Assembly: GCF_964355755.1 (NCBI RefSeq)
Contig: NC_092671.1
Location: 31,816,304 to 31,880,303, forward strand
Direction of reading: 5' to 3'
Length of the DNA: 64,000 nucleotides
Source: Antedon mediterranea
Lineage: Eukaryota; Animalia; Echinodermata
The notes beneath the pieces were generated by a model that worked only from the letters and a program-made list of their open reading frames with translations, made no database searches and had not been told where the DNA came from. Each line of letters begins with the position of its first letter. Position 1 is the stretch's first letter. The translations under genes and the position numbers were made by a program. Shown here piece by piece: positions 8,627-8,668 of this stretch.

Positions 8627-8668
<42 letters not shown>
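8627..8668 (+). other. 42-bp ectopic copy of the 28S helix-69/R2 target region in the IGS
   Basis: AGCGCGGGTAAACGGCGGGAGTAACTATGACTCTCTTAAGGT is identical to 28S 7229-7270. Confidence 0.97.

Follow-up and report, generated by a model that had tools for sequence, protein, structure and literature searches.

Every spacer of this ribosomal DNA array carries a perfect 42-bp copy of the 28S sequence that ends at the nick site of R2 elements. The reading that we favor, with a probability of roughly 0.55, is that the copy is a displaced R2-junction relic which was spread by concerted evolution and which is still predicted to be a secondary site that R2 could bind and nick. The window, that is, the whole 64,000-nucleotide stretch of Antedon mediterranea DNA analyzed here, is a tandem array in which Rfam identifies six full units (18S, 5.8S and 28S) plus the beginning of a seventh 18S gene; the 18S appears to be of echinoderm type. 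The relevant features of the array, in window positions, are the following.

7229-7270, + strand: 28S source segment in unit 1; the R2 bottom-strand nick falls between 7269 and 7270
8504-8575, + strand: (TTAACCATA)n array of unit 1, 51 bp upstream of the spacer copy; its copy number varies among units
8627-8668, + strand: spacer copy of 28S -41 to +1 in unit 1, with the R2 recognition motifs RUM and RASIN intact
8684-8709, + strand: T tract of unit 1, 15 bp 3' of the copy; 26-29 nt long depending on the unit
18292-18333, + strand: spacer copy in unit 2, exact match
26893-31150, - strand: LINE with APE endonuclease and reverse transcriptase (RT), two ORFs, within the TTAACCATA array of unit 3
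31232-31273, + strand: spacer copy in unit 3, exact match, pushed 4.3 kb away by the LINE
40990-41031, + strand: spacer copy in unit 4, exact match
50691-50732, + strand: spacer copy in unit 5, exact match
60334-60375, + strand: spacer copy in unit 6, exact match

The spacer 42-mer is real and is linked to the R2 nick site. It occurs 12 times in the window, always on the + strand and with 0 mismatches, in 6/6 spacers, as the original prediction had stated, and in 6/6 28S genes (starting at 7229, 16894, 25158, 39583, 49311 and 58962). Alignment also confirmed the proposed boundaries: identity to 28S runs exactly from -41 to +1 relative to the AAGG^TAGC nick site, and the sequences diverge from +2. 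When the unit-1 spacer was compared exhaustively, on both strands, with the 18S-28S region, this was the single 42-bp match and the next longest measured 12 bp; the flanks had been described as unrelated to 28S. Exact 42-bp matches between spacer and gene have a chance expectation of 2e-18, and the probability that a segment copied at random from the 6229-bp gene region ends no more than 2 nt from the nick is ~0.0008. Because the 3' end of the copy lies at +1 of the nick, we conclude that its origin is tied to the R2 site.

The order of elements 3' of the 28S is the same in each unit: ~117 unique bp, the (TTAACCATA)n array, another 51 unique bp and the 42-mer, followed by 15 bp and the T tract. 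A distance of about 240 bp between the 28S end and the copy had been proposed. This holds for five of the six units, in which the copy starts 241, 241, 250, 223 and 241 bp past the Rfam LSU end, and does not hold for unit 3, where the distance is 4504 bp because the LINE sits in the (TTAACCATA)n array. This LINE is not an R2; its RT match ends at profile position 182 of 205, and it looks internally deleted. Both the LINE and an insert at the R2 site of 28S, described below, are located in unit 3. The same unit, and no other, has three substitutions in the 117 bp after the 28S (26729-26845), which is consistent with weaker homogenization of a doubly inserted unit. Separately, the unit-6 28S has a 26-bp deletion near its 3' end (equivalent to 8149-8174 of unit 1). 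Past the T tract, 5-bp satellites alternate with repeats resembling the sequence that directly precedes the 5' ETS; in unit 1 these subrepeats of ~190 bp (8920-11370) are diverged copies of that pre-5' ETS sequence and are probably spacer promoters.

For R2Bm, RUM (-34 to -22) and RASIN (-6 to +1) at a fixed spacing are reported as essential, a change of T+1 to A as abolishing cutting, and sequence from +6 as dispensable for nicking as well as for target-primed reverse transcription (TPRT) (PMC10499050); target requirements described for Drr and Dcr are similar (bioRxiv 10.1101/2023.04.07.536001). The spacer copy contains RUM, as exact 28S sequence, and RASIN (TTNANNT), both at these positions and at their native distance. 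Scanning the window for the motif pair, with a pattern loosened to fit the 28S sequence, returned the 6 spacer copies and the 6 28S sites and nothing elsewhere. The claim that R2 proteins take most of their specificity from about 40 bp upstream of the nick agrees with the upstream footprint reported at about -40 to 0, all of which the copy covers (PMC11204384). Since both motifs are intact, we predict that R2 would bind and nick the copy, rather than meet an inert dummy. What the copy lacks, as it diverges at +2, is the downstream half-site and the match of 4-5 nt to the RNA tail that would serve in priming, and off-target insertions of R2Tg are described as favoring a downstream match of that length (PMC12222951). 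We looked for a residual downstream half-site past the copy and rejected it, as 34% of 3285 background 12-mers align equally well. By the R2Bm rules, then, R2 would bind and nick the copy, which may prime less efficiently than the true site.

These properties bear on the function that the original prediction had put forward, in which the copy is kept by the host as a decoy or sink because binding of R2 protein diverts nicking and insertion to the spacer and spares the 28S. Coverage of the entire footprint argues for such a role, as does the report that N-terminal domains of A-clade proteins bind the upstream half-site only (PMC11204384), and R2Bm would need nothing from +6 onward. With the footprint, RUM and RASIN at native spacing, the copy should indeed compete for R2 protein. 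By the R2Bm rules it would be nicked and not serve as an inert dummy, and nothing in the sequence speaks for a working decoy or for maintenance by selection, its flanks being equally invariant. The altered primer bases from +2 also count against a decoy. Moreover, one copy per unit would by our reckoning dilute R2 twofold at most, halving 28S hits at best. Insertions occupy 0/6 spacer copies and 1/6 28S sites, numbers too few to discriminate. Taken together, we consider retention as a host decoy unlikely.

Conservation does not speak for selection either. Across the six units, substituted columns number 0/42 in the copy, 0/51 in its upstream flank and 0/15 in its downstream flank, compared with 3/117 in the first 3' spacer segment, 3/470 before the 18S, 4/1805 in the 18S and 3/841 in the ITS region. 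As the flanks are just as invariant, perfect identity over six units carries no weight for selection on the copy, and with so few substituted columns elsewhere the pattern is that of ordinary concerted evolution. The array is young or well homogenized, and the six perfect copies are effectively one observation. The 42/42 identity to 28S bounds divergence at <6.9% (95%), which fits a recent origin or constraint alike.

A prediction of nicking raises another possibility, that the copy is a programmed break site at which an R2 nick triggers unequal sister-chromatid exchange, controlling rDNA copy number while leaving the 28S unharmed. RASIN is intact including T+1, the counts of nearby microsatellites and subrepeats differ among units, and in Drosophila R2 breaks are reported to drive expansion of rDNA copy number (PMC11700107), although this role may be specific to that group (PMC13580325). 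Against this, none of the six copies bears an indel scar, and variation in repeat number is normal in spacers. In theory, such sites also tend toward self-erosion. We therefore regard a programmed break site as improbable.

Candidate evidence for R2 in this lineage comes from the insert in the 28S of unit 3, which has the following parts.

25199-25611, + strand: 413-bp insert in the unit-3 28S at the R2 nick site AAGG^TAGC, its 3' end joined to TAGCC
25211-25252, - strand: downstream 28S (7424-7378) copied in antisense, split into two exact arms (10 and 26 nt)
25335-25346, + strand: 12-nt sense match to 28S -36 to -25 inside the insert

The 3' junction falls at AAGG^TAGC without target loss. 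The antisense arms lie in the first 55 nt of the insert, at its 5' end, and resemble a snap-back junction, a type of product known for R2 proteins (PMC11371274). The 12-nt sense match was noticed post hoc and may be due to chance. Using a profile built from 27 proteins of at least 950 aa among 40 R2-like homologues, with an R2-related query, we found no R2 coding remnant in the insert (best E 0.21), nor did Rfam return a significant match to it; truncation to the 3' UTR only would equally leave an insert without RT, RLE or Rfam matches. In the window as a whole the same profile revealed no R2 ORF and matched only the RT of the APE-type LINE. We also considered Pokey/piggyBac as the source of the insert and rejected it, as there is no TTAA target duplication and the junction is at AAGG^TAGC. 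From its sequence, the insert is likely a 5'-truncated, 3' UTR-only R2-type insertion. The original prediction had taken it to imply R2-like activity: the insert has R2-type junctions, with no R2 coding remnant and no RNA-family match, and R2 activity in the lineage is accordingly an inference from the junctions.

How could a piece of the target have reached the spacer? In our model for the displaced relic, an R2-type enzyme would first have cut the 28S at the AAGG^TAGC site, and upstream 28S sequence would then have moved into the 3' spacer. It could have arrived there at the 5' end of an off-target insertion, as its leader, with later deletion of the body, or else as a short piece of cDNA or DNA that was taken up at a break. 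The spacer variant would finally have become fixed through gene conversion and unequal exchange. None of these steps would require a function, and if R2 were diverted at all, this would be a side effect of about twofold at most. R2 ribozymes are reported to cut 9-36 nt upstream in the 28S, most often at -28, and the upstream 28S leaders of R2 transcripts to leave duplications at 5' junctions (PMC3774820). Off-target R1 copies are described with 7-28 bp of upstream 28S (PMC2718515), and remnants of transposable elements fixed in rDNA spacers are known (PMC10257491, PMC10319768).

A homogenized relic had been listed originally as one alternative to the decoy, and it emerged as the best-fitting reading: copy and flanks are equally homogeneous, and the only gene-derived spacer segment of more than 12 bp ends at +1 of the nick. 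Several observations pull the other way. At 41 nt, the copy is longer than the 9-36 nt of reported ribozyme leaders (PMC3774820), and its 5' boundary at -41 coincides with that of the footprint at about -40, a match that a neutral relic does not need. Recurrence elsewhere, described below, also counts against a relic, in particular a copy spanning -34 to +9 upstream of an 18S gene in the L004/L007 sequence family. In addition, under gene-conversion theory a cut site that is repaired from uncut alleles tends to be lost rather than fixed. The sequence after the copy holds no Rfam ribozyme at E<=5 and no match to a core pattern of HDV-like ribozymes, and the R2 profile had no hit there, so that no R2 body follows the copy.

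Two further links were tried and rejected. Homology between the post-copy bases and the beginning of the unit-3 insert amounted to no more than a T at +2 in common and an AT-rich match of 9 bp (p 0.035-0.057), and an adjoining apparent match in the insert turned out to be antisense 28S. Insertion of the copy into a palindrome would account for a TAG direct repeat and a 6-bp inverted repeat, which are marginal (p 0.018 and 0.057). The window contains no empty site without the copy. On present evidence, the by-product explanation suffices.

Beyond the array, we scanned metagenomes for the -28 to -3 core accompanied by non-28S bases at -47, -42 and +4, which yielded 12 loci; scans of viral contigs and of prokaryote genomes had 0 matches each, as expected. 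Because no copy reaching beyond -41 could pass the metagenome pattern, which also demanded a change at +4, and because the scan had no control segment, these loci document recurrence, not enrichment. Three of the 12 (L005, L006 and L012) are short exons that adjoin group I introns. Another five (L001, L002, L003, L008 and L010) have copies outside 28S that start at -28 or -29. R2 coding sequence is present on L002, L003 and L010, and L001 has 371 bp in common with L002, at 73%; L008 is unconfirmed. With coding sequence at three of five loci and a fourth similar to one of them, displaced leaders are a routine R2 product.

The remaining loci form two sequence families. L004 and L007 carry a copy from -34 to +9 in a GT-rich satellite, with all four changes at -2, +1, +3 and +4; +5 to +9 match 28S, which 16/2918 background 11-mers do as well. 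On L007 the copy lies 2.6 kb upstream of the 18S start, with U4, U1, 5S, U5 and U2 genes between; both contigs are without 28S, so that the label of spacer derives from the 18S. The five genes form a cluster in the 2.3 kb preceding the 18S (L007:1-2300, also L004:770-1426), so that an rDNA spacer here appears to house 5S along with spliceosomal snRNA genes. L009 and L011 hold three copies that match exactly over -40 to +2, and indels lie directly upstream of that stretch. They belong to a repeat family (L011:1-520, L011:1410-1620 and L009), near a 5S gene on L011, with copies of 28S -55 to +2 in both orientations that merge at the nick into a repeat motif itself resembling RASIN.

Such independent recurrence gives some weight to a defensive role: the L004/L007 copy begins at -34, the first base of RUM, and has lost T+1, and the L009/L011 copies are exact over -40 to +2 while -55 to -41 bears indels. 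However, the scan pattern itself forced the non-28S bases at -47, -42 and +4, and agreement among the boundaries of its hits is in part built in. A broader view would be that several unrelated eukaryotes independently captured and kept spacer copies of the R2 footprint as a DNA decoy defense, in a cuttable form in this array and in a cut-site-mutated form in L004/L007; we hold this view, including its two forms, to be rather unlikely.

The same loci also touch on whether an agent other than R2 was involved, for example a Pokey-like piggyBac element acting at TTAA, a homing endonuclease of the I-PpoI type or a different RLE retroelement, with capture of a cut end in the spacer. The copy contains TTAA at -6 to -3, and the R2 target region of 28S also holds most of the I-PpoI site. 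Group I introns flank the segment at the three exon loci mentioned above, and the 18S start on L007 appears non-animal and protist-like. On the other hand, a copy ending at +1 agrees with the R2 nick rather than with a TTAA duplication, no such duplication accompanies the unit-3 insert, which is joined at AAGG^TAGC, and Rfam identified no group I intron in the window. Thus, another agent is in our opinion a poor candidate.

The location of the copy also invites an explanation at the RNA level, namely that a hairpin and U tract in the 3' external spacer aid Pol I termination or 3' processing. The source segment in the unit-1 28S includes the H69 hairpin (7245-7263), so the copy has it in full, 15 bp before the T tract of 26-29 nt and ~240 bp past the 28S, and a 6-bp inverted repeat flanks the copy. 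That repeat is marginal, however (p 0.018-0.057), and of the helix preceding H69 the copy holds a single strand, and it breaks off at the R2 nick instead of a structural boundary. Folding gave this suggestion, which had also been raised originally, no support, being no better than for shuffled sequences (sense z 0.58 and -0.03, antisense 1.12), and no other Rfam families match. A terminator scan, of bacterial type and hence of little relevance, found none. The copy also includes a Reb1-like 7-mer, which occurs once more at 8490; short matches of this kind are common. A role in RNA seems to us very improbable.

We return to the displaced relic and to its place among known systems. The copy is like the canonical R2 target in 28S (PMC10499050) in being identical from -41 to +1 with both motifs at native spacing. 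It is unlike that target in sitting in the 3' spacer of every unit and in being without the downstream half, which D-clade proteins bind in addition and which pairs with the RNA 3' tail. Like the 28S duplications at R2 5' junctions (PMC3774820), it is upstream 28S sequence that is out of place and ends at the insertion site. Whereas those leaders are reported as 9-36 nt long and as lying in tandem at the 28S site with an R2 body behind them, the spacer copy has 41 nt, lies ~1.4 kb downstream of the site, has no recognizable body and is fixed in all units seen. Fish R2 3' UTRs with 28S-like sequence (PMC5035012) likewise place target-region 28S outside the gene; there it is described as a diverged part of the element, whereas here it is an exact copy that belongs to the host repeat unit. 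The transposon remnants in the Hepialus humuli IGS (PMC10257491; PMC10319768) are a parallel for DNA related to mobile elements that hitchhiked into most units, except that the piece fixed here is the host target of the element and not the element. A spacer R2 of Inachis io, given in a review table (PMC10946416), was set aside as a precedent, since its source paper (PMC10257491) places the element in 28S.

Among the full-text matches listed, none reported a decoy or a copy of the R2 target within an rDNA spacer, although supplementary junction tables could hold cases, and the word decoy has 0 occurrences in PMC13580325 and PMC10946416; such a copy is apparently unreported before. The persistence of R2 in rDNA, and whether its hosts restrain it or turn it to their use, are described as open questions (PMC13580325). 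In this array, a second full RUM-RASIN site per repeat provides a natural paired test, with the same upstream sequence in the gene and in the spacer. Even as a relic, the copy informs what the downstream half-site and the context add to targeting in vivo, and this contribution bears on R2-based gene insertion tools. If selection on the copy proved true, it would represent a new kind of host defense.
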